Positions 5,720-63,855 of a stretch of 64,000 nucleotides of DNA are shown piece after piece; positions within the stretch are counted from its first letter, which is position 1; each line of letters begins with the position of its first letter. Both the position numbers and the translations under genes were made by a program. The notes beneath the pieces were generated by a model. The model ran no database searches and was not told the origin of the DNA. It saw only the letters and a program-made list of their open reading frames with translations. This DNA comes from Hormiphora californensis (taxonomy: Eukaryota; Animalia; Ctenophora). Location: NCBI GenBank assembly GCA_020137815.1, contig CM035353.1, positions 7,688,001-7,752,000 of the forward strand, given 5' to 3'.

Positions 5720-5860
5720 GATCTAGGAGCTAGAACAATGTGTTAGTTGTTGTGGGTAGTAGTCAGACAAATATAGGCTGGGGGTTTAGAAAACCTGAAA
5801 ATCAATAAATAACATGGTATAAAAGAATAAAACGCGTTATGATCCGACCCTCCTTTACAC

Positions 5861-5892
<32 letters not shown>

Positions 5893-5909
5893 GAGGTCGA
5901 ACAACTCTT

Positions 5910-7673: not shown

Positions 7674-7960
7674 GGTTACCTAGTAGTAGAGAGGGGGGTT
7701 ACCATGGTTACCTAGTAGTAGAGGGGGGGGGGTTACCATGGTTACCTAGTAGTAGAGAGAGGGGAGGAGAGGAGGATATATGGAGGAGATAACACACTTC
7801 ATATAAACAGTTAATAATTTAATTAAATAATTAACAAATAATCATGGAACAACAAATAACATAACACACCCGATTTACATCTTTAGTTCCCCTAAAAACC
7901 ACCGTGGGCCAAGTCGCATTATCAATTAGGGTCGTTTGAGTCAGTTTAGACACAATTTCA

Positions 7961-9462
7961 CTATTTCATCTTGGTTGCACTATCAATATCATCATATTCC
8001 TCCATCAGTCCATCCATCTCCCCAATATGTCTCCTGCCCATCCTGCCTCCACCCTCCTCACCCTGCCAACCTAACCTCACCATCACCATAGCAACCAACA
8101 CTGTTGCCATTATCACCAGGGTGATAAGGTAGGGGTGTGTTGTAAAGAATGCCCCCACTACTGCTGCCCAGGTATCTAGGTTGGGGTGGGCAGATACATC
8201 TCCAAAGTGGGCAGGGGTAGAGCACTGCCCAACACTGTCACCCTCTCTATCAGTAGGTACCATTATTAGGAGGGTCAGTAGACATGTCTCCTTGCTGGGT
8301 GCCCGGTAGGGGGTGATGACAGGAGGCAGGTTGTTAGGGGTGTAGTCAAACTGACACCGTACCTTCAGTACCTCCCCTGACTGGATCCGTATCGGTGTGT
8401 CGAATGTGTGAATCTGATGGGAGTCAGTAATCCTGGTAACTAGGATGTCACGTGACTTCACTCTCTTAGTGTTGGTGATGGCAGTCTGGTTATTCCTCCA
8501 CAGTATAACACTTTTACCATGCTGACCCAGGTCAGTATACACCCCATATATCATGAACCCAGCACCAATCTGGCACCTTGTATCCACATTGAATAGAGTG
8601 TGGGTGTTGGAGGGCCGGGATACAGTCCTGTGGAATTGGTAGTTGCTCTGCCGGAATTTAGGCTTTGTGAAACAGTCCCTGAATGTCACCTTTACATCTT
8701 TGGGTCGTAGTGAGATGGTGTTCTTGTACTGGTTGGGGTTGTAGAACTTGACAAGCCGAGCAACTAGGAAATGAACATTAGCGTCGTATCTGAAACGGGG
8801 AGATTATGATCAGAAGGCTTTAAAATACTCATCATTAGGACAACGACAATTCTAGTGTGTACTGGATTAAATGGGAGAGAGTTTAAAAATGCAGACATAA
8901 CAACCTCATCATATAATGTGCATGAATCAAAATGAATATTATTCTCTCTCTCAACTCATCCTACCCTCCCCCTCTCTGATCCCCATCTCCCATATCTGAT
9001 CCCTATCTCCCCTCTCTCCCACTGCTACCTGATCATTCTCTCACCAGTCACCAACCCCGTCTCCCCACCCTCGTCACCCTCTTCCCACCATCTCCTCACC
9101 CTCCTCTCACAACTCACCCTACCCTCCCCCTCCCCCTCCCCCTCCCTGATCCCCATCTCCCATCTCTAATCTCCATCTCCCCTCTCTCCCCTGCTATCTG
9201 ATCATCCTCTCACCAACCCCCCTCTCCCCACCCTCTATCTCTTAACTCACCCGACATGAACCCCAGTATTGGGAGGTAGGTTCTGAACAGCCTGTCCATT
9301 GTACCAGGCCCACAGAAGGGTGTGTGTCCCTCCTCCACAATGTCTTGGGTTTAGTTCCGTATCAGGAACTAGATCCTCTCTAGGTCCTGAGGTAGCGAGG
9401 TGGATACAGGCCGTTTATATATATTGAGTGTGTTGCAATCAAACTAAACCACACCTGGCCCC

Positions 9463-9540
<78 letters not shown>

Positions 9541-11512: not shown

Positions 11513-11971
11513 GGCTATAGGGAGAGGGAGTATATACCGTTAGTTGTTAGGTGGAGGGAGGGGGTCTTGATGGGGGCAGTTGGGGTGATAACGATTAATA
11601 AACTGATTAAATGGACAAATAAATACAGTTAAACAATTTTCAAATTCACGTCAGCCAGAAACCATGCTACCTTCTTGGCCAGTGCATACAAACAATAACT
11701 ACTTTTTTTAAGTCAGAGCACAAAAATACACACAATTAAATAATGCCTTTCACTTTTATACAAATACTCGGGGGGTGAATAAACAACCTTGCTAATTTGG
11801 CTACAATAAAATACATGGCTGTTAAAATGTTATTGAGATTGTAAAAATCAGTCATTGAGAACCACGTTAAATAAACGTGAAGTACCGAGCAAGAGAGTAT
11901 TAACTGTCCAGCTATAGTAGCACTTGTAGGACCTGTATTTCAATAAGAGTGCTTGTAGGAGGACCAGTATT

Positions 11972-14954
11972 TCAATAAGAGTGCTTGTAGGACCTGTATA
12001 GAATTTCATCTTCATCTTCATCATCCATAGGGCTAAACAACTTTTCAAATCCTTCATTTCCCTTTGTGTAATAGGCAGTCCTGAGAGGGAGATAAGAGCA
12101 TTGAATAACAAATAGCAAACAACACCAAGTTATATTCCTGACACAATTTCACCACCCAAGATATGGTGCTAATTTCCTGATGGTGTCTTACTTGGGACAG
12201 AAGTATGCCTTGGTACAGATAGCAACAGCGAACACGCCCAGTACAACTATAAGGATGATAACTATAGACCTGATTAGTCCCTCTCCCTTAACATAGTGGT
12301 CGTACCAATGTTCATCCTGCAAGGTAGCTGTGTTAGTAAACAGCAGGTCCCACAGCAGGGAGTTAGATCTCTATTTAAATTAAGTAGAAAGTGACTGAGA
12401 CTGACTGAGAGTCTCAGTCAGTGAGTGTATATTTCAGCCCGCCCTCTCCTTTACTCAGACAAATGGATTGAAGAAGGGGCCCTCTCCCACTTGGTTAGTT
12501 ACCTGATGTCCAGGTACACTGAATATTCTCTTTTGGGTACATTCCTCTGTTATACTACCAATCTGGGAACTCTCTGGAAGGAGCACATTTTATTAAATTA
12601 AAGAAAGGAAGAAAAAGCAACTACAGTCGGACCCCGATTTAGTGGCCCCCGATTTAGTGGCACCCCGATTTAGTGGCAGGATTTTTCCCCCCGATATATA
12701 GAAAACTAACATTATTTGACCCCAATTTAGTGGCACCCCAATTTAGTGGCAGGATTTTTTCCCCCGAGGATGCCACTAAATCGGGGTCCGGCTGTAGTAT
12801 AATGTAGCTTGTGTATACGAGGGGTGATGGTTACTTACCAGTGTAATACATTAGGTAGAGATTGCACATTTCATCATTATGAGTTGATCCAATAGATATT
12901 GTTCTGTTTGTACTCCTCGTATCGAACTCACACCTGATGATGTGAGTTGTTACTTGGTGTCAGGAACTGTTAGGATACATGCCACATGCCACACACAACA
13001 GTAATAACTAGAGTAGTCTCATAATAATAGTAACAACTGTCCTAGATACACAATAGTAACTACAGCTGGTAATAGTAACTACTCGTACCTTGCATAAACA
13101 GTATCCCCAGGTGTTATTACAAAGACCTCGCTGGTCTTAACAAACATCTCACTAAGATTGGGATCTCTTGATCCTAACATATCCCAGTCACCTTCGTGCT
13201 CTCTCCACCCACTTATCTGCAGGGAGGGGGTGTAAATTGAGTTGGATAAACTACCCAATGAAATTTAGGTCTATCTCATATTGTTGATGGTCCTTGTCCC
13301 GGAGAGTGCTGTACTCACGGTTGCGAGGAGCTATTAACACACCTATCTCATACTAATCTCACTGGATTCTCTCTCTCTCTCTCTTACCCGTCTAGCCCAG
13401 GTATGGCCATGTGTTCTGTAAGCGAAGACGTTAATTGCAGGGGCGGTATAGTTGCAAGCTAGGTCGAGGTGGATATCTTTCTGGCCAGGGGGGAAGGTGC
13501 CCTCTAGAGCCATGAACAGGTAGATGCCCGCACTGTACCGGGTAGGGGAGGAATTGAAGAACACATCAACTCCGGAGGTATCCTTGTAGTCATCAGGCTG
13601 GGCCAACTGAAATTGTTAATGTTGTACTGATATATCTAATTACAGAGGTCGCCGGAATACCTTCTTACTACTACTGATATATTTAGGTAACTAGTATTTA
13701 CTGAGTAACACGTAGTAACTAGTAACAAGTAGTAACTAGTAGCAACTAGCAGTAACTAGTAGTAACTAGTAGTAACTAGTAGCAACTAGTAGTAACTAGT
13801 AGTAACTAGTAGTAACTAGTAGTAACTAGTAGTAACTAGTAGTAACTAGTAGTAACTAGTAGTAACTATAGTAGCTCTACCTTGTAATGAAGCTGTGCCA
13901 CGAGATATCTAATACGTTTGTTCCCTGCCTCTATGCTAACATTAGCAGGAAAGGCAAATTTGGGTGCGTCTAGAGCCCATGCCCACAATATAACACCCTC
14001 GCCATCTTTACAGGTCCCTCCGCCCAGCCATGGGTCTGTACTAGGGATCTGGTAGGGGGTAAGGATGGGTTAACAGGGGTCTGTACTAGGGATCTGGTAG
14101 GGGGTTAGGATGGGTTAACAGGGGTCTCTAATACTAGAAATCAGTACAGATCAGTAATCAGGGTGTCACAGTGTTCAGGTGACCTACATCGGGGCATCCA
14201 TACAGTAAAAGATGGTGAACTACACTAGATTTAGCAGCAGCTCTGTACCCCGTTATATACACTGTATCCTTCACTTCAGTGGGTACATGCCAGTACATGT
14301 CGTCTTTAGGTACCTGGATACCTGGGGGAGAGTGGGAATTAGGTACCTGGATACCTGCATGGGAGAGTGGGAATTAGGTACCTGGATACCTGTGGGAGAG
14401 TGGGAATTAGGTACCTGGATACCTGGGGGAGAGTGGGAATTAGGTACCTGGATACCTGGGGGAGAGGGGGAATTAGGTACCTGGATACCTGGGGGAGAGT
14501 AGGAATTAGGTACCTGGATACCTGGGGGAGAGTAGGAATTAGGTACCTGGATACCTGGGGGAGAGTGGGAATTAGGTACCTGGATACCTGGGGGAGAGTG
14601 GGAATTAGGTACCTGGATACCTGGGGGAGAGTGGGAATTAGGTACCTGGATACCTGGGGGAGGGTGGGAATTAGGTACCTGGATACCTGGGGGAGAGTGG
14701 GAATTAGGTACCTGGATACCTGGGGGAGAGTGGGAATTAGGTACCTGGATACCTAATATGGACTTTAGATGACCTGGGATACTGACTCGAGGACAGTCGG
14801 GGAGATTAGAATGGCTATAATAGTGGAGGGATGGGTTGTATCTAGATAATCAGATGTTACAAGAAGGTTAACACATACCTGGCATTCTAATCTCAATAAT
14901 ATCATCGTCTCCCAACACAAAGGCAAATAATACCGTCAATAGTAACACTGACAT
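11972..14954 (-). CDS. PHM: Monofunctional membrane-anchored peptidylglycine alpha-hydroxylating monooxygenase (no PAL domain), 9 exons, about 374 aa
   Basis: Phase-consistent exons 14879-14954, 14188-14321, 13881-14048, 13388-13606, 13089-13216, 12839-12933, 12503-12573, 12192-12316, 11972-12080. Signal peptide, IRMPG, VHHLLLYGC, LWAWALDAP, AQLHY, YRTHGH, DEMCNLY, TM SIVIILIVVLGVFAVAIC, tail GFEKLFSPMDDEDEDE. Confidence 0.9.
12624..12794. mobile_element. Tc1/mariner-pogo-type MITE
   Basis: TIR cagtcggaccccgatttagtggc...gccactaaatcggggtccggctg with TA on both sides. Confidence 0.8.
13712..13868. repeat. 10-bp minisatellite (agtaactagt)n
   Basis: About 14 direct copies in a PHM intron. Confidence 0.9.
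14309..14755. repeat. 33-bp minisatellite made of a 3' splice site plus exon start
   Basis: Minus-strand unit ctaattcccactctcccccag|GTATCCAGGTAC, about 13 copies; the last copy is the PHM exon 2 acceptor. Confidence 0.9.
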
Positions 14955-16167: not shown

Positions 16168-16933
16168 ATGACGAGTTCGAAATCCAAGGTGCTGTCTTCC
16201 CTTGAATTCGAGAAAGACGAGGAAGGGAGTAAAAAGGAAAATGAAGGAGAGTTACCTTTACCGAAAATACCAAAGCAACGAGGTCAGTAGTATGTCATCA
16301 CTATGTCACGTATCCATGTTAATATTATTAAATGTTGTATTTTTCAGGGGGACCATTATTTGATGACGACTCTGAGAGCACCTCTCTGCTGTACAATGGG
16401 AGCTCAGAAAAGAGAGCACTGATAAGAGAGAGCTCAATCTCACTAACAAGCCCCCAACACCCCAAACAAGGCAAGATCACTCTACAGGAGTTCGACTATG
16501 ACGCCGGAGAGGTATGTTGTTGTTGTGAGCTGATTCTTCAATCACGCTATATAAGTTACAATTGCAATAACTCTCTTCTGCCCAGGCAAGAACATACACG
16601 GAACCCTCCACTAACTTCTGTTTGGCGGTGGTGTCCTCATTCTTTTGTGTTGTAGTTGGGATATTTGCAATCAGTCACTCTGTTCAGGCGCACTACTATA
16701 AAGAGGTAACACACCCTACATGTTATATATTGGAACTACTATTTAGTAGTAACACATACCTCACATGTCTATACCTCACACACATATCTCTCTCTCTCCA
16801 GGCTGGAATCATGTCCCTCGCGGAGACCCACGGTTCTAAGGCGGCACATCTCTCTGTTGTGGCGATAATCATGGGTCTTATCATTGTCATGTGGATCTCA
16901 ATTATTCATATCATGCTTCAGAGTAATGCTTAG
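16168..16933 (+). CDS. CD225/dispanin-family (IFITM/PRRT-like) membrane protein, 4 exons, about 176 aa
   Basis: Exons 16168-16282, 16348-16511, 16586-16705, 16802-16933 in phase. C-terminal PSTNFCLAVVSSFFCVVVGIFAISHSVQA...AG...A...SKAAHLSVVAIIMG matches the CD225 two-hydrophobic-segment pattern. Confidence 0.75.
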
Positions 16934-18819: not shown

Positions 18820-21800
18820 ACTAACCGATAACCCCAAACAAATCGCCTGCCCCCAAACAGACCCTGACAACAGCCCTAACCCGTCTCGACTGCCAAAATC
18901 GATGAAGGCATCCAGATTTTAAGGGCGCCGTTACGATCTGGGTGTTTGATGGGCTGTTTACAGCTGCGCCCTTCCAAAAAAGTTGATTCACTAAATAAAA
19001 ATGGCTCTCCCCGAAGTTCGGGCCCGAAGGCCGAACCACTCAACCGTTTTGGCTAATTCAAAGTTTATCTGGTAGGAAATATCAAGGCCTCACCCCAACC
19101 CAAGCCCCAGCCCTAACCCTACGGCCTACTTTAGCCCTAACCCTAAAATACGAGTTGTCCTAGAAATAGCGGAGGACACACTCTGTAAGAAGGCAGAACC
19201 ACGAACAACCAAGCCCAAGAAGATCTCTGAACCCTTCAAAAGAAAAGCAAGGAAAATTAAAACGAAACTAGAGCTTGATCTGGATCCCTTTGAAAAGAAG
19301 CTATTACGAAACCAACTCATAGACAATGACGAAGAAATGAAAAAGGAGATCCGGCAGAACCTAGACCGTGGAGAAGAGAAGGCGGTTGATACGATTAAGG
19401 ATAATCCCAGATTCTTCTACACTTACGTGAAGAAACGATCCAAAACTGCGTCATCCGTTGCCCCCCTAAGAAGAGTAGACGGCAGCCTTACAACAGAAAG
19501 TGCAGAAAAAGCACAACTGTTGCAGAACCAGTATACTCGGGTGTTCAGTGACCCTACAAAAGTCGAAGTGAATGCCAGCCTCTCCTGGATTAAATCGGAA
19601 CCAGAAGCTATCCTTGATGATTTTGACTTTACCCCCGAGGATATCAAAGCTGCCCTGAAAGAAATCGACCCGTACGGCTCAGCACCCGACGGAGATATCC
19701 CTGCAAGGATACTTTATGAGTGCAGAGCACAGCTTGCCTACCCACTTTGGCTCCTTTGGAGAAGATCGATGGACAGTGAAACCATCCCCCCGTCTCTCAA
19801 AAATCAATACATTGTCCCAATATTTAAAAAAGGCGACAAGACTAACCCCGCCAACTATCGACCGGTATCACTAACGTCGAATATCATCAAGACGTTTGAG
19901 AGAGTGATGAGAAACCGTTTAGTTGACTTCCTTGAGGAGAGCAAAGTGTTTCCCGAATCGCAGCACGGTTTCCGCAAAAGAAGAAGCTGCCTTACCCAAC
20001 TCATCGAGCATGTGGACTCAATACTCAAGGAACTCAGAGAAGGAAATGAAGTCGATGTCATTTACGTCGACTATGCCAAAGCGTTCGATAAGGTTGATAT
20101 AAATGTCCTCCTGGCCAAACTCGAACGGTATGGAATCCAAGGGAAAACCCTCAACTGGATACGGTGTTTCCTAACAAACAGATACCAAACAGTTGTTGTG
20201 GATGGAAAAAAGTCTTCGTGGGAAATAGTTCGAAGTGGTGTTCCACAGGGGACAGTGCTTGGCCCTCCACTATTTATTCTTTATGTGGCAGATCTAAACT
20301 CCGCTGTCCTTAACTCAACCACGAAAACCCTGGCAGATGATACAAAACTGATTAAAGGGATCCAAACTGAGGATTCTCACACCCAACTACAAGAAGATCT
20401 TACGGAGGTAGGAAGATGGTCAAAAACAAACAACATGAGCCTCAACGAAGATAAATTTGAAGTGCTACATTACACCCTCAACAAAACCTTCCTCCTAAAG
20501 CAACTGCCTTTCGTCGCTGAACTGGAGACGTACTACACACCTGAAGGACTTGAAATCGAACCAAAGGAATGTGTTCGAGATCTAGGGATTCAGTTGTCAA
20601 ATACCCTGTCTTGGGAAAACCAAATCGGAAAAATGACCTCTGATGCTAGGCGGATAAGTGCGTGGGTTCTACGGGCGTTTAAGACCAGAGCCAAGAGAAC
20701 TATGCTAATTCTCTACAAAAGCCTTGTACGCAGTAAGCTTGAGTACTGCTGTCCACTTTGGGACTCTCCAAAAATCTCCAATATCCAACAAGTTGAGACA
20801 ATCCAAAGGAAATTCACAAAGAGGATCCAGGATATGTGCAATTTAAACTATTGGGACCGCCTGAAGAGGCTGGGGATCCTCTCGCTTCAGCGAAGGCGAG
20901 AACGCTACTCCATCATCATGGTCTGGAAAATGGCCAACGGTGAAGCGCCAAACAATATCGGGATCCGCTTTTACCAAAATGATCGCCTCGGACTACGAGC
21001 GGAGGTGCCAACGTGTCCCACTACCACACAGTCGTCGGTGGCCACGAAATTCCACAACTCCTTCGCTTCTAGAGCGACCCGACTATGGAACACTCTCCCA
21101 AGTGATGTGAACTCAGCCAAAAACCTCTCTGCGTTCAAAGTACTTCTTGGGGAATGGTTGAAGAGGATGCCGGACAGACCCCCGGTACCTGGATATACCA
21201 GACAAAATAACAACTCAATTCTGGACTGGATACTCCTTGTATCCAGGGAGGGGGAGGCTCTGTGAGGAGCTGACACCGGTACAGCATCTGTACGAAGCCA
21301 TTTACAAGATTACAAGATTACAAGAAACCGTTCGTCAGCACTCAGCGGTCAGCACTCTCCAAACACCCAGATTTTTACGCTGGCCAGATTTTTTAACTTT
21401 GCCCGGTGACGCGACCGCGACGAGAATTTACTGAAAAAGTCAAAATTCAAACTGCGAAGCCACGAAATGTAACGCGCGAGCTTTAGCCACTGATAAATGG
21501 TGAAAGCGCTGCCAAATTTTAGCTCTTATCAAGCCGCGCGCTCTGAATTTAAAACCGCGACCGGTCTTGAACGGCTTTCGGAATCTTTTAAAAATCAAAA
21601 TCCTTTCTCGGGTGCTTTCAAATTGTTTGAAAAGCGATGCCTTATCCCGCGCTGTCGGGGGCCAGCAACGTTTGCCAATCAAATTGTCAAAATTAGCACA
21701 AAACGGCCCCCTACACCCCCGCCGGGGCTGCGCCCCTGGGCCCCGCAGGTGGGGGGTTTCACACCCCCTGACCCGGGCTACCGCCCAAAACCCCTGGACG

Positions 21801-22180: not shown

Positions 22181-22331
22181 CCTCCTTTTCCTGTTCTCTC
22201 TGGTTTCTATCTTTCAGCAACCCAGAAAGTGTGATTTGCTTTTGCCAAGCAGTATTTTTAGATACAATTCAAATCTTTAACTGTTATAATTTTAGTGCAA
22301 GGATAGCGGGTGTGGGGTCACACTTGGCATC

Positions 22332-23105
22332 ATGGGGTGCTGCCAATCAACTGAGAGCGACCAGATCTCTAATACGTTAATGGTTCAATTTGCAAGTAAC
22401 CAAAGTATTCAGACAAAATCAGGGCTCAGAGATCAAATCACTAAACGGGAATGGATAATGAAATATGGGTATCCCACAACAGACAACCTATTCCAGTATG
22501 AAGGTCATATCCTAGCTTACAGCAACTTCTTCAAGTGTCCCCTGTGGGTGTGTGAAGGTTTAACAAAAGATATGCTCGACAAGAAGTCCATTGACAGAGG
22601 TCAGAGGCGTTTTGAGAAGGTTGACCTGATTCCAGTTATGTTCCAAAGCAATTACAATGATTACAAGGTGAAGAATATTGATCGGGGTCACATGGCAGCA
22701 GCGGGCAACCATCATTACTCAGAACAGGCCCTATCTGATACATTCTTTCTCAACAATATCTGTGCTCAAACCAGGAATGTTAACCGATCGATATGGAAGG
22801 AGCTGGAGAACCACGTCAGGAAACTGGTAGGTCAGCATGGTACAGTTCATGTGATAACCGGGCCTCTCTTCTGTACAACCACCAAGTACCTTGAGATTCA
22901 GATGCTTGGTAAAAACAAGGTTGCCATGCCAACTCATTTCTTCAAAGCTCTCTGCTGGGCAGGGAGCATGGAGGGGTATATCATCCCTAATGAGGACACT
23001 GTCAGTGGAGAAATAGAACAGTATAAAGTTGGGACAATTTGTGAGATTGAGAAAGTTGCCGGGTTTAGAATTTTTGAGAAGGCCCAGGCTACACGAGAAG
23101 AATGA
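22332..23105 (+). CDS. Endonuclease G-like nuclease 1 with MGCCQS N-terminus
   Basis: Intronless ORF; KYGYP, PLWVCE, DRGHMAAAGNH, TFFLNNICAQ, WKELE, VITGPLF, MPTHFFK, IEKVAGF. Confidence 0.9.
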   Translation: MGCCQSTESDQISNTLMVQFASNQSIQTKSGLRDQITKREWIMKYGYPTTDNLFQYEGHILAYSNFFKCPLWVCEGLTKDMLDKKSIDRGQRRFEKVDLIPVMFQSNYNDYKVKNIDRGHMAAAGNHHYSEQALSDTFFLNNICAQTRNVNRSIWKELENHVRKLVGQHGTVHVITGPLFCTTTKYLEIQMLGKNKVAMPTHFFKALCWAGSMEGYIIPNEDTVSGEIEQYKVGTICEIEKVAGFRIFEKAQATREE

Positions 23106-23359
23106 CTATGGACCTCCCGTGAAATTATTTTAATTTTATCTGATTATGTTTTCCACAGCTCACTGATCTAACAAATGTGTTTTTTCAACATCTTTTTAAT
23201 TTTTATCACATCTGGATACTGTAACACAGATAAAATGATTGTTGTTTAATGTGTTCAGTTTTGTTTTACATTTTATTCGTGATGATATTGTGTTCTCTTA
23301 TGTTTTACCACCATAATAACTTCCCATATAACCTATTTACAGCTGTACCGAGTTATGTC

Positions 23360-24232
23360 ATGGGGTGCTGTTGCTCTAAGAAGGGCCACAGAAAGGATTC
23401 GGATGTTGATTTAGAGCATGTCTCACAACCACCAGCACCACTACCAGTGCCTAAACGGAGGGCTCCTTCACCCCCACAGAAACGAAAAGAGACATTTCGT
23501 AAACCGGATAACATCAATGTAAACAAGGGAGGGATTAAATTCCACAATGTATCTGGGAGATTAACTCCCGAGCAAAAAAGGATTAAGGATGTCTTAATGA
23601 TGTATGGTTATCCTACAAGGAAAGATCTGTACCTTTATGAAGGACACATTTTAGCCTACAGTGAGTTCCATAAATGCCCTCTATGGGTATGTGAGCGTGT
23701 TACAGCGGAGCAGCTCCGTCCAGAGCGGAGGGTTGTTAAACAGCGTTATATCGCTCCTGACCTAGACTACCCTGGATTTAGTAAGGGACATATGGCAGCT
23801 GCAGGAAATCATAAGCACTGCCAGCAGGCGCGTTATGACACTTTTGAAATGACCAACTTCTGCCCTCAAGTACAGGATCAAAATGAAAGGATTTGGAATG
23901 ATTTGGAGAAACATGCTCGTGAAATAGCTACTAAACGGGGATTCTGCCATATCTTAACTGGTCCTGTGTTTCCAAAGATTCCTGAGAGGATTGGTATTGA
24001 TAACACGTCAGTACCTTCTCACTTCTTCAAGGTTCTCTGTTGGGATATACATGAGGGGTACATGCAGATTGAGTCGTACCTCATTGCGAACAGGGAAGGT
24101 ATCAGTCGAGGGTTATCACCTCATGTTGTAAGGAGAGTTGATATTGAGGATAAAGTAGGGTTCCCTGTGTTTGAGGCACTGAGACCAGAGTGTCACCATT
24201 GCAAACGGTACCCGTGTAAATGTGGGATGTGA
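23360..24232 (+). CDS. Endonuclease G-like nuclease 2 with MGCCCS N-terminus and SKGH active-site variant
   Basis: Start placed at ATG 23360, after acceptor tttacag (23342); YGYP, PLWVCE, SKGHMAAAGNH, TNFCPQ, WNDLE, LTGP, VPSHFFK; Cys-rich C-terminus. Confidence 0.85.
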   Translation: MGCCCSKKGHRKDSDVDLEHVSQPPAPLPVPKRRAPSPPQKRKETFRKPDNINVNKGGIKFHNVSGRLTPEQKRIKDVLMMYGYPTRKDLYLYEGHILAYSEFHKCPLWVCERVTAEQLRPERRVVKQRYIAPDLDYPGFSKGHMAAAGNHKHCQQARYDTFEMTNFCPQVQDQNERIWNDLEKHAREIATKRGFCHILTGPVFPKIPERIGIDNTSVPSHFFKVLCWDIHEGYMQIESYLIANREGISRGLSPHVVRRVDIEDKVGFPVFEALRPECHHCKRYPCKCGM

Positions 24233-24696
24233 GATTGAAAATATGAAAATATTAACCTAACTATTATAGTTATTAGTTAGGTTAATATATTTTGTTTTAT
24301 ATCAATTAACTATTCAATTATATGTAATTATTCCGCTTTTAATGTCACAGTTTTTGGTTTTAAAGTTCTTTCGAGTGTTTCTGAATCAGAGTGTGGAGGA
24401 CTAGGTTCTGTGTAGTTAGGATCTTCTAGGTTTTACTGCTAGACAGAAGTTCGTATGTGTGTGTTTCTAACTGTTTCTAACTGTTTTTTAAACAATTTTC
24501 TATAATTAACTAATCTAACCTTAATTTATTATCTCCGGCCATTATCTAAGCATAGCTTTTTATTCTATTATTCCAAGACGACCGCTTTAGTCGCGGTGGA
24601 GAGATGTTCATACAACACTAGCCATTAGGTTCTTTAGTTGTTTCCTCCATTTATAACGCATAAAAGCGGTATATCAAATGTATATATTATTATTAG

Positions 24697-27600
24697 TAAT
24701 AATAATAATAACTATGTTTGTATTCCGCCCATATCCGACAGGGACAGAGCAGTAGAACTGTTTCTGTCACTGAAGGATGATCTGAACGGTTAACATACTT
24801 GAATAAACCTGCCGACTAATCCTTAATATTGCACAAAAAATGGTAAAGAAAAAAACAACGGCCCACATAACTATCGGTAACTGAAAACATAACAGACTGA
24901 GATAGAGTCCTGAAACTCTAAAAAGATGGTTTAAAAGTCCAATAGATAGAAAACACTCGTGCTATGAAAAAACCCAAAACGTGCTTCACACTTCTGCTCG
25001 CCACGAGCCAAAATACAGAAAAAATAAAACAGGTACCAGCTAGAGCACAAACCTCAGTAAGATGGAGAGAACACTCCTAGGACAATCAGGATTCACCGAA
25101 AGCCTCAATGAAGAGACTAGTCTTTAGCTTAGACTTGAAAGAGTCCACAGAGTCAATTGCTCTCAGATCAATGGAAAGCTTATTCCAGATTTCAGGCAGA
25201 TAAACCGACGGACGTCTCCTCCTCAACTTAGAAGTTGCATTCACACTGGATAGCTTAGGATACCTCAGCTTGAGGCCATCAGGCTGAGCGTTTCCTCTGG
25301 TAGTCCGGATCACATGTAGTCCATCATCCACAGGGACCTGTTCCTGCAGGTACACTGGAGCCAAGCCATGTACAATCTTGTACGCCATTAAGCAAACCTT
25401 GAACTTAACTCGCTGTTCAATCGGGAGGACGTGCATTTCACTCAAGTAGGGCATGTAACTGTCCTGGTGACCATACAGGCCATACACAAATCTGACACAT
25501 GAGTTCAGAACTCGCTGCAAGCTATCCAGGAGCTTCTTTGGTAAGCCAGAATAAAGGACATTACAGTAGTCAAGTCTCGAAACGATGAGTTGCTTCACCA
25601 GAAGCATCTTGGTCGATTTATCCAAACATCGGTTAACCTGCCACAAATTCTTGAGAAGCATTCCACATTGCTTCTTAACACTGTTGATCTGCCTTTCCAT
25701 CGAAATGTTACTGTCAAGGAATACACCCAGGGTCTTCCCTGCAGATCCAGTAAATTCCATAGGGCTGATTTCCACTCCTCCAAAGCTTACTGTGGGCTGG
25801 AAGACCATCTTATCCAGAGCACTGCTCTTACCTAACAGTAAAAACTCTGTCTTTGCCTCATTACACTTAAGCCAGTGATCACTCATCCACAGTTTCACAC
25901 TTGATAGACACTCCTCAATCCTCTCCTTCGCTGCATTCCAACCATCCTCGTCAGTAGGCACAAGACTGATGTACAGTTGAGAGTCATCAGCGTATAGCTT
26001 AATCCTCAGACCAAAGGGTCTAACCAAGTCCTGGAGCTCCTCGACATACAACAAGAACAATACCGGCCCAAGCAGTGACCCCTGTGGAACTCCACATATC
26101 AGCGTGATGATCCTCGAAAGCTCCCCCTCCACATTAACTCGGTAATTCCTACACTGTAGATAGCTGGCAAACCAATCCAGCACAGAGCCTTTCACTCCAA
26201 AACGTCCTTCCAGAGTCTCTAGCAGCTTCCCATGGTCCACTGTATCAAAGGCGGCACTCATGTCTAAAAGAAAGAGGCCAGTGACCTTTCCTTCATCAAG
26301 GTCTCGTAGTAAATCATCAAACATACCCATCAGGAGTGTTTCACAACTATGTCCCACCCGATAACCCGATTGATGTTTGTTCAGTAACTCATTCTCATTG
26401 AGGTATGAGTTCAGCTGCTCTAGGACAACCTTTTCCAGTAATTTGGAGATAAACGGTAGGTTGGAGACTGGACGGTAGTTGGATAAGGAGTCTTTGTCCC
26501 CATGGGGGTTCTTAATCGTAGGAAAAACCAATGCTTGTTGAAGAATATCAGGAACGCTGGAACACTGGAGTGATAGGTTTACAAACTTGCACAAAGCGGT
26601 GGCTAGCTCATCAATGCAACCTTTCACCAACCACGTAGGTATGAGATCAAGATCACAGGTCTTGTCAGGCATATCTTTGATAATCCTCATTAGTTTCTCT
26701 GGGGAAACTTCCTCAAACTTTTCAAAACAACAGACAGGGGTCTGATGTAAAACATTCCTCGTTGTTCTCTGGTTCTGCTCCTCTAACACAGTAGTTCGGA
26801 TCCTCTCAACTTTTCCAACAAAGAAGTCACCAAAATCATCCGCTAGCTTCCTCTTATCACTTGTTTCTGGTAGAAAGGTTTCATTGTTTCCAAGAAGGCG
26901 GCTGAGCTTCCTCTGAAGTGCTTTTGGGTCATCCCTTGATTCCTCTAGATCATCTTTCACATACTTCATTCTCGCCTCTTTATCCACACGTCCAAACTGT
27001 CTCTTGAGGTCATTGAATTGCTTCTTCGTTATACTAGTTCTGTTGCTTTCCCAAGCCCTCTCGGCTTTCCTTCGTAGTCGAAGAACCTCACGCACCTCTG
27101 GATTATCTCTCCATGGCTTTATCTTCGCCCCTTTCTTCTTCTTCCTCTTCAGTGGGACAGTCCTCTCCACAAGATCCTCGATTATCCTCGAATAAGCAGT
27201 CAAAGCATCCTCAGCAGATTTAGACTCCATCACCGCACTCCAATCCACATCTCCAAAAGCTCGCCTGAACAGTTCCAGGTCAACTGCCCTAAAATCCCTG
27301 TATGTGTCAATCTGTTCACGGGTTTTGTATTCACTTCTAGTAGTCTCGATTAACAGATCAGCTAAAACCATAAAGTGATCCGAAGTTGTCCCTTCTGGAA
27401 ATATTGTCACTGATTGAACTTTGGAAACTCTGTCTTTTTGGCACAGCAAGAGATCAAGAGTACCTCCTCGAACATGGGTGGGTTGCATTGGAACTAATTG
27501 ATCAAACCCCAGAGAGTCAAGCAGTGCAAGTAATTTCTTGGCATAGAAGTTCTGGGTGTCATGGACCTGGAAGTTAAAATCACCCATCAGAACGGGATAT

Positions 27601-27775
27601 CCAGTTTTGCAGACTAGCTCGGACAGATAGTCATTAAACTCATCCAGGAACTGTGCTTCCGTATATCTTGCCTTGCCCGTGTAAGGAGGCCTATAGATAT
27701 TGCACAACCTTGTAAGATCCTGCCCAATACCGATAAGGGCTTCCTGGACCTGGAATGATTTAAACTTAGTCTTTA
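24697..27775 (-). mobile_element. L2/Jockey-group LINE with partial AP endonuclease and RT (ORF 25086..27707)
   Basis: IYRPP, MGDFN, PTH..GGTLDL, SDHF (endonuclease); NYRPVSNLPFISKLLEKVV, QSGYR, LDMSAAFDTVDH, GVPQGSLLGP, YADDSQLY, LDYCN; (TTA)n tail near 24697-24712; 5'-truncated. Confidence 0.92.
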
Positions 27776-27838
27776 CTGGTGTGTAGTCTTTACTGGTGTG
27801 TAGTCTTTACTGGTGTGTAGTCTTTACTGGTGTGTAGT
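27767..27838. repeat. 17-bp tandem repeat (tagtctttactggtgtg) x4 at the LINE 5' junction
   Basis: Four direct copies. Confidence 0.85.
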
Positions 27839-28047
27839 ATACTATTATATATTTTTACAATCGTGTGTTGAATGTTTATTATGCTATGATGTACAGTATA
27901 TTATTTCAGTTGTACTAGTATAAGTTTGTATTCTAAAAATATAATGCAGTGTTTGATTACCCCGGTCCCTGGTAACTACCCTCTACAGAGCCCATGCTGT
28001 GGAACATCTTGTTACCATAGTAACCTCCCCCCAGGTATAATGGTGAG

Positions 28048-29259
28048 ATGGGGTGCTGTTATTCCAAGGAACGAATTGCCCCAGCACCTCTTGCTACTAT
28101 ACCTCTCCAACCTCTAACATCTCTCAAACCTACCTCTACTACCTTTGCTACACCTCTCCAACCTCTAACATCTCTCAAACCTACCTCTGCTACATCTACT
28201 GATGGCACCGCAACTAACCCTTCACTGGCGGGGACCAGTGGAACCCCTCAATACACACCAGACACCCCTGTCTGTCCTACTGAACATCCTCTTCAGCCAA
28301 CTACAGAATTAGCTGAGAATTATGGGAATAAATCTAACATCCCACCTTTCAAGACACCACCATCAACCAAACTAAACAAGATACAGCCACTCTCGAAACT
28401 ATCCCAAACTAACACCCAACTCTCTAAACACGTCCAAACCAACATTCTTCTAACACTCTACAAGAGCACCCAAACTAACAACCTACCCCGGCAACCCCAT
28501 CCTCCAAAGAAGATTTCAGAAGTGAGGATGTTTGTAAACCTTGCTAACCCTTCCAATAAAGAGTTACAAAAAAGGAGTCAGATAATGAGATATGGGTATC
28601 CCACAACAAACAACCTTTTCCAGTATGAAGGTCACATCCTAGCTTACAGCAACTTCTTCAAGTGTCCCCTGTGGGTGTGTGAGAGGATTACTAAGGCGAA
28701 CCTGGGTAATAAGAGAGTTGACAGAAAGACACACAGTAACAGGAATAGTTTTGTAGAAGTCGATGAGTTGGAGGATTTCTCATCTGACAACTCTGATTTC
28801 TCAGAGTCAGGGTTCGATAGAGGTCACATGGCGGCTGCAGGAAACCATCAACACTCCATGAGATCTTATAGTGATACATTCAAACTAACTAACGTGTGTC
28901 CCCAGTCACCAGACCTTAATAGGAGACTTTGGAATGAGTTAGAGGGTCAGATAAGGAGCATTGTTTGGGATTACGATGTTGTCCATGTTCTAACAGGACC
29001 TTTGTTTGCTGCGGTTAATGATAAGAAGGCTAACTTGGTAGTAAGGAGGATTGGACAGAACAGGGTCTCTGTACCAACACACTTCTTTAAGGTGTACTGC
29101 TGGAATCAGAATGGAGGGATGAGACTAGATTCTTATATAATGCCCAATAGATGCGGGCTGAAGGGGACCCTTAGTAATTATATAGTACACTTTAGTGAAG
29201 TGGAGAGAAAGGCTGGGTTTAGAGTTTTTAGTTTGCTAAATCGTAAAAACACCAGCTAA
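28048..29259 (+). CDS. Endonuclease G-like nuclease 3 with MGCCYS N-terminus and long Thr/Pro/Ser linker
   Basis: Intronless 403-aa ORF; DRGHMAAAGNH, TNVCPQ, WNELE, LTGPLF, VPTHFFK. Confidence 0.9.
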   Translation: MGCCYSKERIAPAPLATIPLQPLTSLKPTSTTFATPLQPLTSLKPTSATSTDGTATNPSLAGTSGTPQYTPDTPVCPTEHPLQPTTELAENYGNKSNIPPFKTPPSTKLNKIQPLSKLSQTNTQLSKHVQTNILLTLYKSTQTNNLPRQPHPPKKISEVRMFVNLANPSNKELQKRSQIMRYGYPTTNNLFQYEGHILAYSNFFKCPLWVCERITKANLGNKRVDRKTHSNRNSFVEVDELEDFSSDNSDFSESGFDRGHMAAAGNHQHSMRSYSDTFKLTNVCPQSPDLNRRLWNELEGQIRSIVWDYDVVHVLTGPLFAAVNDKKANLVVRRIGQNRVSVPTHFFKVYCWNQNGGMRLDSYIMPNRCGLKGTLSNYIVHFSEVERKAGFRVFSLLNRKNTS

Positions 29260-29574
29260 TTTCAGATTTAAACCGCTTTATATTCTTTTACATGTTGTAC
29301 ATAATTAGATAACCAGAGATATAAATCAGATAATTTATTGAACGGGTAGTATCCATTGTACAGAGTGTGATAATGTATATTTTGAAGCAGCTATTGAAAT
29401 CAACATGTGTAAATAACAAACCTAATTGATTGTTTATCTTTTGTACATATATATCTTTATTCTTCATACAAATTAAAAACAACGGAAGTTTTTAAGGTCT
29501 TTATTCTTCTGCATGTTGTACAGTTTATTATAGACTTGTTAGAACTGTGTGTTATCCCCATTTGTTATATCCCT

Positions 29575-29999
29575 GTAATCCCACTCCCTCTCTCCCAGCC
29601 CTAATCCCACTCCCTCTCTCCCAGTCCCTAATCCCAGCCTCTAATCCCACTCCCTCTCTCCCAGCCCCTAATCCCACTCCCTCTCTCCCAGCCCCTAATC
29701 CCACTCCCTCTCTCCCAGCCCCTAATCCCACTCCCTCTCTCCCAGCCCCTAATCCCACTCCCTCTCTCCCAGCCCCTAATCCCACTCCCTCTCTCCCAGC
29801 CCCTAATCCCACTCCCTCTCTCCCACCCCCTAATCCCACTCCCTCTCTACCACCCTCTAATCCCACTCCCTCTCTCTCTCCCACCCCCTAATCCCACTCC
29901 CTCTCTCCCATCCCCTAATCCCACTCCCTCTCTCTCCCATCCCCTAATCCCACTCCCCCTCTCTCCCACCCCCTAATCCCACTCTCTCCCAGCCCCCAG
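29575..29999. repeat. 27-bp minisatellite (cccctaatcccactccctctctcccag)n
   Basis: About 15 copies ending 9 nt before the ATG of nuclease 4; unit is CTAAT + pyrimidine tract + CAG. Confidence 0.9.
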
Positions 30000-30008
30000 T
30001 ATGTTACA

Positions 30009-30806
30009 ATGGGTTGCTGCTACTCCTCTCAACTACCCTCTACAGGTGACCTGGAACACAATGCAATACACGTGAAAATACAGGGTAGTAAAAGACAAGT
30101 TACAATTCAACTTATAGAACAGAGATACCAGATAATGAGATATGGGTATCCCACAACAGACAACCTTTTCCAGTATGAAGGTCACATCCTAGCTTACAGC
30201 AACTTCTTCAAGTGCCCCCTGTGGGTGTGCGAGAGGGTCACCAAGGCTAACCTCCGTAACAAGCGTGTTGACAGGACTGATAAGGAAGACAAGTTTGAGA
30301 GAGTGTGTCTGCTACCTAACTACTTCTCATCAGACAACCCCGACTATAGAGGGTATGATAGGGGTCACATGGCAGCTGCAGGCAACCATCAACACTCCCC
30401 TACCTCCCATGCTGACACCTTCCAGCTCAACAACATCTGTCCCCAGAGTGGGGAACTTAACAGGGGGCTGTGGAACGATCTAGAGAAGTATGCTAGGGAT
30501 GTGGCCTGGCAGAGAGGGGAGTGCCACATCCTGACTGGACCTCTCTTTCTCGCTCCTGAGGCTGGGTATTTTAGGACTGAGAAGAGTGAAGACAAGCTAG
30601 TTATACGGAGAATAGGGAACAGTGGTGTTGCACTACCATCTCACTTCTTTAAAGTTATCCTGCCTCCTATTGGGAAGGCACAGTGTTACATCCTACCCAA
30701 TAGAGATGGGTTGAAAGGCTCTATAGAGCAGTTCCAGGTACCGTTACAGGAGGTGGAGAAGAAGGCAGCGTTCAGGGTGTTCCACAGACGGGAGGGCCGT
30801 GTGTAG
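30009..30806 (+). CDS. Endonuclease G-like nuclease 4 with MGCCYS N-terminus
   Basis: Intronless 265-aa ORF; DRGHMAAAGNH, NNICPQ, WNDLE, LTGPLF, LPSHFFK. Confidence 0.9.
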   Translation: MGCCYSSQLPSTGDLEHNAIHVKIQGSKRQVTIQLIEQRYQIMRYGYPTTDNLFQYEGHILAYSNFFKCPLWVCERVTKANLRNKRVDRTDKEDKFERVCLLPNYFSSDNPDYRGYDRGHMAAAGNHQHSPTSHADTFQLNNICPQSGELNRGLWNDLEKYARDVAWQRGECHILTGPLFLAPEAGYFRTEKSEDKLVIRRIGNSGVALPSHFFKVILPPIGKAQCYILPNRDGLKGSIEQFQVPLQEVEKKAAFRVFHRREGRV

Positions 30807-30841
30807 TCAATAACGGGGGGTATACTGTGTATATACTAACT

Positions 30842-30948
30842 AGGAATCGACCGAATCAGGAAATACTGGTCCCTGATTGGCTGATAACCAGTCACGTGAC
30901 CTAAATAACGAGTTCTGATTGGTTGTTTACTTAATCCAGTCGGTTCCT
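30842..30948. mobile_element. CAGGAACC MITE copy, opposite orientation to 1496-1604
   Basis: Reverse-complement similarity to 1496-1604. Confidence 0.8.
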
Positions 30949-31256
30949 GGTATACAATGTATATACTAACTATCTTAACCACTATAATGTTGACTTAACC
31001 ACTATAATGTTGTTGACTTAACCACTATGCTGTCAACTAAGTTGACTAGTGTGTATTATGAATGTATTATGAATGAGATACTTCACAGATATAATGTTTT
31101 TATACTAGGTATTGATTTGGGCATGACTATTTTTATATCGCTAATGGATTGTAAATGTTAACCTTTCTTTTATTGAAACTAACTGCAATAGTTATCTCTC
31201 TCTACCCTCTCTACTCTTTCCCTTGTAACAATAACCCCGTGTCTCCCTGATATAGG

Positions 31257-32246
31257 ATGATGTTTCAAGGAATGTTAAGAAAGGCGAAACGAGCTCTAGC
31301 AGCAGCAACTGCTGGAATAGTGGCCCACTCTATAATATATGACACCCCAGCTCCAGATCTCTCCACCTCTATCCTCCCATCTCCCTCCACATCTCCATCC
31401 ACTCTAGCACATCTGCTCAATGCCATCCATATATCTGCCCAGGCTAAGTCAGCACCATCCCCATCTGAAAATGTTGTCCCTAGCCTAGAACACAGACTCT
31501 GGAAACGTAACGAAGTTATGAAGTTTGGGTACCCCACCCTGGACAACGTTACTCAGTATGAAGATCACGTTCTGGCCTACTCTAACTTCCATCGCTCCCC
31601 CCTGTGGGTCTGTGAGCATCTGACAGAGCACAATATCAACATCAACGCAGATAGTTCGGGGGATAGGAGCAACTCTAAATTCACAACCGTCCCCACCGTT
31701 CACCCCTTCTTTGCAGCAACTAACAAGGATTATTTAAACAGTGGGTTTGATCGGGGCCACATGGCGGCTGCAGCTAACCACCGATACAGCCAGGCCGCCA
31801 TGAATGATACCTTCTATCTGGACAACATATGTCCCCAGACCGGGAAGGGACTAAACAGATCCAAATGGAATGATCTTGAGAAGAGAGCACGGGCACTAGC
31901 CAGGAAACACGGGTCTGTTCACGTGTTAACGGGGCCGTTATATCTACCTACTGTAACTAACGGGGAGAAGTTCATTAAGATGCAGCTGATAGGAAACAAC
32001 AATATAACTGTACCTACCCACTTCTTTAAAGTATTGCTAGTGACTGAGAGGGGTGGTAATGGTTACCAGATGGAGTGTTATGTGATGCCTAATGAGCCGA
32101 TACGAGATGACCTCCCTATAACCTCATTCCTGGTACCCAAGACTGCTATTGAGAAAGGTGCTGGGTTCTTTGTCTTCGAGTTTGTGGCTGACAGTCAGCT
32201 AAGGAAGATTAATGGTATTGATAACCCAGACTTTATAGGTCGGTAA
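31257..32246 (+). CDS. ENDOG: Canonical mitochondrial endonuclease G
   Basis: Basic amphipathic N-terminus with no acidic residues (MMFQGMLRKAKRALAAATAGIVA); MKFGYP, SGFDRGHMAAAANH, TFYLDNICPQ.G.GLNR..WNDLE, TGPLYLP, VPTHFFKV, YVMPN, IEKGAG, LRKING. Confidence 0.92.
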   Translation: MMFQGMLRKAKRALAAATAGIVAHSIIYDTPAPDLSTSILPSPSTSPSTLAHLLNAIHISAQAKSAPSPSENVVPSLEHRLWKRNEVMKFGYPTLDNVTQYEDHVLAYSNFHRSPLWVCEHLTEHNININADSSGDRSNSKFTTVPTVHPFFAATNKDYLNSGFDRGHMAAAANHRYSQAAMNDTFYLDNICPQTGKGLNRSKWNDLEKRARALARKHGSVHVLTGPLYLPTVTNGEKFIKMQLIGNNNITVPTHFFKVLLVTERGGNGYQMECYVMPNEPIRDDLPITSFLVPKTAIEKGAGFFVFEFVADSQLRKINGIDNPDFIGR

Positions 32247-32580: not shown

Positions 32581-34733
32581 ATGACAATGGAGGTTGACCT
32601 AGACAGGGAATTAATGAATGGGTTCAAGACCATGAATACAACTGACAAGGACGTCCTAATCACTGAGTTCCTACGGGTACGTACAGCACCTATCTATAGT
32701 GTTATGTGTTTATAATGGACTCTTCCAGTGATATCCCTCCTTATATAGGATTGTATCTCCCTTCATACACCTCCCTTCCCTCCTCAGGTGCTTTGTATCT
32801 CCCTTCATACACCTCCCTTCCCACCTCAGGTGCTTTGTATCTCCCTTCATACACCTCCCTTCCCACCTCAGGTGCTTTGTATCTCCCTTCATACACCTCC
32901 CTTCCCACCTCAGGTGCTTTGTATCTCCCTTCATACACCTCCCTTCCCACCTCAGGTGCTTTGTATCTCCCTTCATACACCTCCCTTCCCACCTCAGGTG
33001 CTTTGTATCTCCCTTCATACACCTCCCTTCCCACCTCAGGTGCTTTGTATCTCCCTTCATACACCTCCCTTCCCACCTCAGGTGCTTTGTATCTCCCTTC
33101 ATACACCTCCCTTCCCACCTCAGGTGCTTTGTATCTCCCTTCATACACCTCCCTTCCCACCTCAGGTGCTTTGTATCTCCCTTCATACACCTCCCTTCCC
33201 TCCTCAGGTGCTTTGTATCTCCCTTCATACACCTCCCTTCCCACCTTATATAGGATTGTATCTCCCTTCATACACCTCCCTTCCCACCTCAGGTGCTTTG
33301 TATCTCCCTTCATACACCTCCCTTCCCACCTCAGGTGCTTTGTATCTCCCTTCATACACCTCCCTTCCCACCTCAGGTGCTTTGTATCTCCCTTCATACA
33401 CCTCCCTTCCCACCTCAGGTGCTTTGTATCTCCCTTCATACACCTCCCTTCCCACCTCAGGTGCTTTGTATCTCCCTTCATACACCTCCCTTCCCACCTC
33501 AGGTGCTTTGTATCTCCCTTCATACACCTCCCTTCCCACCTCAGGTGCTTTGTATCTCCCTTCATACATCTCCCTTCCCACCTCAGGTGCTTTGTATCTC
33601 CCTTCATACATCTCCCTTCCCACCTCAGGTGCTTTGTATCTCCCTTCATAAACCTCCCTTCCCACCTCAGGTGCTTTGTATCTCCCTTCATACATCTCCC
33701 TTCCCACCTCAGGTGCTTTGTATCTCCCTTCATACACCTCCCTTCCCACCTCAGGTGCTTTGTATCTCCCTTCATACACCTCCCTTCCCACCTTATGTAG
33801 GATTGTATCTCCCTTCATACATCTCCCTTCCCACCTCAGGTGCTTTGTATCTCCCTTCATACATCTCCCTTCCCACCTTATATAGGATTGTATCTCCCTT
33901 CATACACCTCCCTTCCCTCCTCAGGTGCTTTGTATCTCCCTTCATACACCTCCCTTCCCACCTCAGGTGCTTGGTATCTCCATACACCTCCCTCCCCACC
34001 TCAGGTGCTTGGTAGTCAGCCCAACGCAGCAGAGGGTGCGTTTTATTTGGATATGGCTAACTGGAATCTTCAGGAGGCAGTATCGGCATGGATGGACGTG
34101 CATCACCCCAGAAATAATCCACTGGCAATGCGATTCGTACAGGTGAGGGTGGGAGAATAGAGAGAAGAGGAGGATATCCCTTAGTGTGCTGTGAAATGTC
34201 CAATAACACTAATCATTCTACAGGATATCACTATTGGTGAAGGGGAGAGTGTGCCACCTAGTACAAGGTTTACCAAGACGTGGAGGATTAGGAATACTGG
34301 AGCAGAATCTTGGCCCCCAGGATGCACTCTTCGTTTCACCGATGGAGATCAACTCTCAAATCATACGGAGGTTAGTTAGCCCCACGTGATGCCCAAATAT
34401 GGCGGTTAGTTAGTCCCACGTGATGCCCAAATATGGCCGTTAGTTAGCTCCAATTAATGATTAAATTCCACTGTTCAATTAATGATTAAATGATCTAGAA
34501 GATTGTTATCTCAACTTGCCCCAACTTATCGTTGATATTATCAGGGGCGTGGATATGTGAGTACCCTGGATTTTAACTTCCCTCTCCTAACCGCCACTTA
34601 GCAGGTGGACAGTAGGGACAGGTCAGTGCTGGACAGGAGATTGATATCAGTGTGGAGATGTGTTCACCCCCAGACCAAGGAATGTTTCCAGGGAAAATGG
34701 AGGATGTGCAATCCAGGGGGAAACTTTTTCGGA
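32581..34733 (+). CDS. ILRUN: ILRUN/C6orf106 (UBA-like + NBR1-like FW domain); 3' end unresolved
   Basis: Exons 32581-32676 (MEVDLDRELM...TTDKDVLITEF), 34005-34142 (AFYLDMANWNLQEA), 34224-34370 (DITIGEGESVPP.T.FTKTWRIRNTGAE.WPPG), about 34604-34733 (IDISVEMCSP...QGKWRMC, with apparent indels). Confidence 0.85.
32750..34004. repeat. 42-bp minisatellite filling ILRUN intron 1
   Basis: Unit gtgctttgtatctcccttcatacacctcccttcccacctcag, roughly 30 copies; source of many spurious ORFs. Confidence 0.95.

Positions 34734-62187: not shown

Positions 62188-63855
<1,668 letters not shown>

Follow-up and report, generated by a model that had tools for sequence, protein, structure and literature searches.

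A 64,000-nt stretch of the genome of the ctenophore Hormiphora californensis (contig CM035353.1, positions 7,688,001 to 7,752,000; hereafter, the window) encodes four tandem paralogs of the nuclease EndoG, each a single open reading frame (ORF), followed by a mitochondrial-type ENDOG. We lean towards the view that the paralogs are acylated, membrane-tethered EndoG duplicates that face the cytosol and likely destroy DNA or RNA crossing from outside. The parts of this view differ in strength: acylation and membrane binding are quite probable, their combination with nuclease activity is probable to a lesser degree, and the specific role of clearing nucleic acid that crosses a membrane is a tentative proposal. 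All five ORFs lie on the plus strand and their products match Endonuclease_NS (PF01223) with E-values of 6e-26 to 5e-55, above the Pfam cut-off for 4/4 paralogs; in the Pfam scan of the paralogs this was the sole domain, and no staphylococcal-nuclease domain was found. An earlier interpretation made from the letters of the DNA (the sequence-only reading) had described four intronless paralogs ahead of ENDOG, and this layout holds, with ‘intronless’ applying to the coding part of the genes.

Each paralog carries an MGCCxS tag (MGCCQS, MGCCCS, MGCCYS and MGCCYS in copies 1-4). In proteins with such a start, removal of Met is followed by N-myristoylation of Gly2 and S-palmitoylation of the adjacent Cys3 and Cys4. 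Given the base composition of the window, an in-frame MGCCxS is expected by chance 4e-6 to 1e-5 times per open upstream stretch, an estimate that applies to each copy singly, as shared ancestry means that the four copies are not independent draws. The codons within the tag differ among copies (Gly GGG/GGT, Cys TGC/TGT, Ser TCA/TCT/TCC), and the linkers that follow it cannot be aligned; they span 36, 73, 173 and 36 residues past residue 6 in copies 1-4, in agreement with the unrelated linkers of about 35-170 residues first described. Outside a short converted block, the proportion of synonymous differences between copies (pS) is 0.72-0.81, which is saturated, and that of nonsynonymous differences (pN) is 0.33-0.45, so the paralogs appear to be both old and constrained. 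Because the residues M, G, C, C and S persist through codon changes, beside unalignable linkers and saturated synonymous sites, the pattern points to maintenance of the tag by selection on the peptide.

The tag also has the features of known acylation signals. The sequence-only reading had proposed predicting acylation, and the PROSITE myristoylation pattern is matched by 4/4 copies; the SH4-type features (an M-G start, a small residue 6 and Cys at positions 3-5) are found in 4/4 copies and in both full-length orthologs from Pleurobrachia bachei. Residues 1-7 of copy 4 and 1-6 of copy 3 are those of the p18/LAMTOR1 peptide, of which 39-40 residues are used for sending proteins to lysosomes (PMC12878585, PMC11844325). 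A PDB search with residues 1-24 of copy 4 gave no useful match.

What the tag appears to replace is the mitochondrial leader. Among 15 mitochondrial-type proteins, including the ENDOG of the window, which has the expected leader, the 15-residue hydropathy is 1.28-2.11 and AxAK is present in 14/15. In the paralogs, hydropathy is 0.07-0.97, and the basic/hydrophobic leader and AxAK are absent. This comparison uses crude sequence features rather than a trained targeting predictor, and at that level it is well supported that the paralogs lack the mitochondrial leader of EndoG and have MGCCxS in its place. The retargeting away from the mitochondrial type that had been proposed thus appears sound: the leader and AxAK are replaced, and the tag is kept despite saturation, is common to the P. 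bachei orthologs and is similar to a membrane-targeting peptide in experimental use.

The copy 4 ortholog of P. bachei (P0006) is 96% identical, of equal length and has the same start. That of copy 3 (P0075) keeps the start, and its linker has stayed open through in-frame indels; a further, N-terminally incomplete protein (P0007) is 91% identical to copy 3. Overall, the orthologs of the paralogs are 83-96% identical. The sequence-only reading had also suggested looking for MGCC-EndoG proteins in other genomes. Among the matches listed (the best 69, the best 120 of 425 and the best 150 of 12,250, plus cluster members), 9 of 328 homologs from outside the window begin with MG, and Cys occurs at positions 3-6 in 2 of them, both from P. 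bachei. Orthologs of copies 1 and 2 were not found among matched proteins of 123-706 residues, a result of little meaning given that P. bachei ENDOG was missed too. Exact look-up of six window sequences in the protein collection found none present, and searches with the paralog alignment confirmed 0/202 pattern matches in JGI metagenomes and 0/226 in viral contigs. A search for shorter proteins gave 11 fragments of 36-64% identity. Fourteen other ctenophore-type EndoGs, including XP_063678041.1 of Bolinopsis microptera, are 54-60% identical to the window ENDOG.

That ENDOG is the likely parent of the paralogs. In a 39-row tree, the paralogs form a clade (support 100/99) within a ctenophore group (100/100), with the window ENDOG as sister (92/90); the paralog stem measures 0.93 versus 0.13 for ENDOG, and the terminal branch of copy 2 is 1.59. 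A constrained tree joining the paralogs to ENDOG was better by 5.07 log units (p-AU 0.84). In a quick 24-row tree, from which copy 2 was omitted, the paralog clade was unresolved at the ctenophore base, and ENDOG is not singled out by residues shared privately with the paralogs (2, tied with two other rows). By these trees the paralogs are ctenophore-specific and fast-evolving, and a duplication within the Pleurobrachia line is favoured. EndoG expansions, to judge from the protein models, recur in other animals: four proteins (P0183-P0186) have 2-5 tandem EndoG-like domains, several without the DRGH His, and lack the MGCC tag; one of them, a Strigamia model (P0183), may fuse several genes, and the other three have signal-like starts.

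Copies 1, 3 and 4 are predicted to be intact nucleases with the full catalytic set. DRGH occurs in these three and SKGH in copy 2, as described previously, and the DNA-binding loop is also present in these three. All four copies keep the equivalents of human EndoG H141, N163 and N172, which cover the general-base His, the metal-ligand Asn and a structural Asn, and the Glu of W-x-x-LE. Judged by the human EndoG residues that have been tested (PMC2653514) and by the Drosophila structure (PMC2790893), copies 1, 3 and 4 keep R110, D138, R139, H141, N163, N172, E180, R184, H228, N251 and E271; R272 is replaced by Lys in copies 1 and 4, a conservative change also found in ENDOG. The Asn of N-x-C-P/A-Q highlighted by the sequence-only reading is present, but the Mg2+ ligand in the Drosophila structure is the later Asn of N-R-x-x-W (PMC2790893), which is likewise kept in all four copies. 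A structural model of copy 4 (pLDDT 86) matches CPS-6 with a TM-score of 0.73-0.77 and a Foldseek E-value of 4e-23, and also matches Drosophila EndoG. The model of copy 2 retains the EndoG fold as well (Z 23.6, rmsd 2.4 over 208 residues versus CPS-6). The C-terminus of the paralogs is shorter than in mitochondrial EndoG. We had considered loss of a redox-sensitive interface proline (CPS-6 P207) and rejected it: in an alignment mapped by hand, P207 corresponds to the TGP proline, which is kept in all four paralogs. Separately, the C-terminus of copy 2 (24190-24232) is a Cys/His-rich tail with two Cys pairs that is absent from the other copies. It could bind zinc or serve as a second acylation site; it is not a standard CaaX, its final Cys being third from the end.

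We propose the following mechanism. Tandem duplication of EndoG was accompanied by loss of the mitochondrial-type leader, with MGCCxS, the fold and the catalytic residues retained in copies 1, 3 and 4. A spliced leader would be joined at an acceptor just before each ATG, making Gly residue 2. Met1 would then be removed, Gly2 myristoylated and the following cysteines palmitoylated, placing the nuclease on a flexible tether at the cytosolic leaflet of the plasma or endolysosomal membrane. The tether may take over from mitochondrial sequestration the task of keeping a non-specific Mg2+ nuclease safe, and overlapping upstream ORFs (uORFs) and a weakened dimer perhaps add restraint. More speculatively, the substrate would be nucleic acid, foreign or from food, that leaks across those membranes. 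The array lies between a CD225-domain gene upstream and a gene with UBA and NBR1-Ig domains downstream, neighbors that fit this reading, though coincidence is possible. A bolder version, in which lipid-anchored guards shred viral or prey nucleic acid as a cell-autonomous defence that arose independently of vertebrate TREX1 and plant CAN nucleases and is tuned by uORFs, dimerisation and conversion, strikes us as doubtful; defence, cilia, gamete and cell-death roles are not distinguishable from the present data.

Several observations weigh against this reading. A cytosolic sugar-non-specific nuclease is expected to be toxic unless restrained (compare Drosophila EndoGI, PMC2790893). No dileucine sorting motif occurs in the four linkers, so the lysosome is not singled out. 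The MGCCYS starts in P. bachei come from gene models rather than measured starts, and copy 2 has three in-frame ATGs further upstream (23249, which is 37 codons earlier, 23282 and 23300). Out-of-frame ATGs lie 5, 8 and 8 nt before copies 2, 3 and 4, the one before copy 3 having a strong context. None of the RNA contigs contained a paralog 5’ end, and an oligo-dT metatranscriptome of low depth gave no contig on copies 2-4 and no splice joints, a lack of cover that does not equal silence. Copy 2 is without D138 and R139 and without the loop that holds CPS-6 F122 and F132 (mapped by hand as above), two residues that contribute to binding DNA and forming the dimer (PMC5137453), and either K127 or R123 could be its counterpart of R110. 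Copy 2 thus looks eroded and may be weak and monomeric. Finally, the dimer beta-wing spans 15, 10, 18 and 25 residues in copies 1-4 versus 19-21 in 34/45 canonical rows (the other 11 were mis-measured by the wing pattern and dropped), and CPS-6 loses 3- to 7-fold in activity when monomeric (PMC5137453).

An alternative that we consider unlikely is that the paralogs are acylated membrane nucleases that act when cells destroy themselves in a programmed way or differentiate terminally (dying cells, gametes, ciliary cells or adhesive cells). Arabidopsis CAN1 is acylated, resides at the plasma membrane and is induced in cell death (PMC3505149), the parent enzyme acts in apoptosis and in removal of paternal mitochondrial DNA (PMC5137453), and features that would dampen output, such as the uORFs and the altered wing, would suit an executioner nuclease. 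However, the presence of several copies, their diverged substrate-side loops and the long stem (0.93 versus 0.13) fit varied substrates at least equally well.

Dual acylation could instead lead to export to the outer surface or to extracellular vesicles, making the paralogs digestive or mucus nucleases. Export would remove the toxicity problem, and the dually acylated and exported HASPB of Leishmania is a precedent, but acylation-driven export is rare. Bacterial relatives are secreted and nutritional (PMC2790893). Plant CAN proteins are described as not found in the medium (PMC3505149). The four paralogs have one new Cys in common (copy 4 position 69), and no conserved new Cys pair suited to a disulfide stands out among them. 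We judge export to be quite improbable.

A third possibility is that the true start lies upstream, in a coding exon private to the gene or, in copy 2, at the ATG at 23249, which would leave Gly internal and unmyristoylated. An acceptor-like site precedes every start, the RNA contigs gave no paralog 5’ end, and the copy 2 extension would be hydrophobic (15-residue hydropathy 2.83), resembling a signal or anchor. Against this, it would be hard to see why an internal sequence should stay an exact Met-Gly-Cys-Cys-x-Ser in two orthologs and in each of the four old copies. In copies 1, 3 and 4, no in-frame ATG lies between the Met of MGCC and the preceding stop, which in copy 1 is 12 codons upstream. 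The sequence-only reading overlooked the earlier ATGs of copy 2, for which ‘begins MGCCCS’ remains an interpretation, as its start may lie upstream. T makes up 45% of the copy 2 extension, whose score as coding sequence is -18 bits under a codon model trained on the window’s own genes, a weak model in that it also gives about -6 bits to the true short linkers of copies 1 and 4; the stretch is likely non-coding, either outron or intron. The distances from acceptor to start (Table 1) correspond to phases 0, 2, 1, 0 and 1 for copies 1-4 and ENDOG. These phases disagree, and therefore no single coding exon is shared by all five genes. Taken together, we regard an upstream start as having a low probability, similar to that of export, and Gly would then be residue 2 of the paralogs.

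The acceptor-like sites likely serve spliced-leader trans-splicing, for which the support is indirect. In H. californensis, which falls within the Pleurobrachia clade, spliced leaders are present on 56% of Iso-Seq long reads (PMC8527503). A polyadenylated ctenophore EndoG contig (L001), which shares 98% identity with the Bolinopsis protein, shows a leader-like end 25 nt upstream of the ATG. In run X2, which derives from a diverged relative and whose RNA nature is a guess, a contig of the gene directly downstream of the array bears the leader end some 15 nt ahead of the ATG, and short paralog-type contigs fall on 28816-28849 and 30459-30513. The oligo-dT metatranscriptome, a library that may contain DNA, yielded at about 98% identity two contigs on copy 1 (22728-22902 and 22905-23092) and one on ENDOG (31970-32108). 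A spliced-leader gene was searched for in the 64-kb window, with 0 matches. The upstream out-of-frame ATGs of copies 2-4 open uORFs that overlap the starts in one relative frame and may dampen or suppress translation. In a separate ctenophore-type EndoG contig (L002:1-55), a leader-like end stands at the start and two upstream ATGs lie in a 53-nt 5’ region.

That the paralogs bind or sense nucleic acid at the membrane while cutting little, or are decaying duplicates, is very improbable: copy 2 has SKGH, two deletions and a terminal branch of 1.59, and each copy has lost or displaced the wing-base proline that 45/45 canonical rows have, but none of the four has lost the His, either Asn, the Glu or the interface Pro, the frames are open and the orthologs show 83-96% identity.

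The array also bears traces of gene conversion. A 96-nt block is 95-97% identical at the nucleotide level among copies 1, 3 and 4, versus 52-58% elsewhere in the genes, and between copies 1 and 3, identical synonymous codons number 26/28 inside the block versus 32/72 outside. Fisher p-values for the three pairs of these copies are 4.5e-6 to 1.6e-4 and for the other seven pairs 0.12-1; they are optimistic, as the block was picked after inspection. Homogenisation of the block by gene conversion is likely. At three sites where copy 3 of the window differs from copy 4, P. bachei copy 3 agrees with copy 4, which suggests ongoing conversion.

Table 1. Positions of the array genes, associated sequence features and surrounding genes and repeats in the window.
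Feature	Position	Strand	Remarks
EndoG paralog 1	22332-23105	+	257 aa; catalytic residues kept; dimer wing shortened
EndoG paralog 2	23360-24232	+	290 aa counted from MGCCCS; SKGH; pre-active-site loop and most of dimer wing deleted; Cys-rich tail
EndoG paralog 3	28048-29259	+	403 aa; Pro/Thr/Ser-rich linker of 173 aa
EndoG paralog 4	30009-30806	+	265 aa; MGCCYSS start; dimer wing lengthened
Mitochondrial-type ENDOG	31257-32246	+	329 aa; basic then hydrophobic leader with AxAK
Homogenised 96-nt block, copy 1	22458-22553	+	at domain start
Homogenised 96-nt block, copy 3	28585-28680	+	partner of copies 1 and 4
Homogenised 96-nt block, copy 4	30135-30230	+	partner of copies 1 and 3
Acceptor-like site, copy 1	22275-22295	+	pyrimidine-rich with YAG; 36 nt before start
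Acceptor-like site, copy 2	ends 23342	+	17 nt before start
Acceptor-like site, copy 3	ends 28034	+	13 nt before start
Acceptor-like site, copy 4	ends 29999	+	9 nt before start
Acceptor-like site, ENDOG	ends 31255	+	1 nt before start
T-rich open stretch before copy 2	23249-23359	+	32% GC; acceptor-like AG at 23342; hydrophobic if translated
Out-of-frame uORF, copy 2	23355-23414	+	similar to that of copy 3
Out-of-frame uORF, copy 3	28040-28117	+	overlaps copy 3 start
Out-of-frame uORF, copy 4	30001-30075	+	similar to that of copy 3
LINE retrotransposon, 5’-truncated	25086-27806	-	RVT_1 E 5e-29; between copies 2 and 3; outside the nuclease system
LINE-type reverse-transcriptase frame	19076-21265	+
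LINE-type reverse-transcriptase frame	59154-60479	-
27-nt minisatellite	29632-29988	+	12.9 copies; unit resembles a branch point, a pyrimidine tract and CAG; stops shortly before copy 4 acceptor
42-nt minisatellite	32751-34014		30.1 copies
CD225/dispanin (IFITM-family domain) gene	~16170-16933	+	spliced; Pfam CD225 E 3e-9
UBA_4 + N_BRCA1_IG gene	32587 to ~36290	+	spliced
DUS3L gene	5910-7679	-	single ORF
Copper type II monooxygenase exons	~5065-13615	-	peptidylglycine monooxygenase-like
MFS/sugar transporter	52188-53591	-	single ORF
Dual-specificity phosphatase domain	60669-61199	+	
Thiolase exon	63388-63858	+

Around the array, the CD225/dispanin gene lies about 5.4 kb upstream, and the UBA_4 + N_BRCA1_IG gene, which we take to be ILRUN/C6orf106-like with an immune role, starts 340 nt past ENDOG. 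Three LINE-type reverse-transcriptase frames occur in the window, two of which flank or split the array. In both minisatellites the units resemble amplified 3’ splice sites and the repeats end at an acceptor. The DUS3L gene sits between the same-strand monooxygenase exons, and looks like a nested gene or one between tandem monooxygenase copies.

Among the papers listed by searches of the open-access literature, none showed an acylated or a ctenophore EndoG; subscription papers and supplements, such as myristoylome tables, could hold a precedent. In the EndoG-centred paper that mentions myristoylation, the term refers to AMID. The earlier statement that no acylated EndoG was known agrees with these searches, but it overlooked an acylated-nuclease precedent, CAN1/CAN2 (PMC3505149): the principle of nuclease acylation that we predict for the paralogs is already found in a plant. 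EndoG has been treated as safe only when locked in mitochondria or bound to an inhibitor (PMC2790893). If our reading is true, tethering to the cytosolic side of membranes would be a third way of restraining it, and would show how, in an animal lineage among the earliest to branch, a death nuclease can take on a new task; so far the tag is known from a single genus-level lineage.

With mitochondrial EndoG/CPS-6/Nuc1 (PF01223, beta-beta-alpha-metal), the paralogs share the fold, the DRGH or SKGH motif with the N, N, E set, and descent from ctenophore EndoG. Unlike it, they have an MGCCxS start and no leader, variable linkers, a remodelled wing, a shorter C-terminus and tandem copies with conversion. 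EXOG is an EndoG paralog with changed properties that remains in mitochondria and carries an additional C-terminal domain; in scores, the window proteins are closer to EndoG than to EXOG. p18/LAMTOR1 is a scaffold and not an enzyme, and the paralogs, which have no dileucine motif, diverge from its peptide beyond residue 7. Mammalian TREX1 is a membrane-tethered, cytosol-facing nuclease that clears stray DNA, a DEDD 3’ exonuclease with a C-terminal endoplasmic reticulum anchor. It is the closest analogue of the proposed role and is unrelated to the paralogs. Arabidopsis CAN1 and CAN2 are, as the paralogs are predicted to be, non-specific DNA/RNA nucleases held at the membrane by an N-terminal myristoylation/palmitoylation motif, and their location was shown by motif deletion, whereas that of the paralogs is predicted (PMC3505149). 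Unlike the paralogs, these plant enzymes have a staphylococcal-nuclease fold and depend on Ca2+ (PMC3505149). Because there is no homology between the two folds, the likeness between the CAN proteins and the ctenophore paralogs would be convergent.

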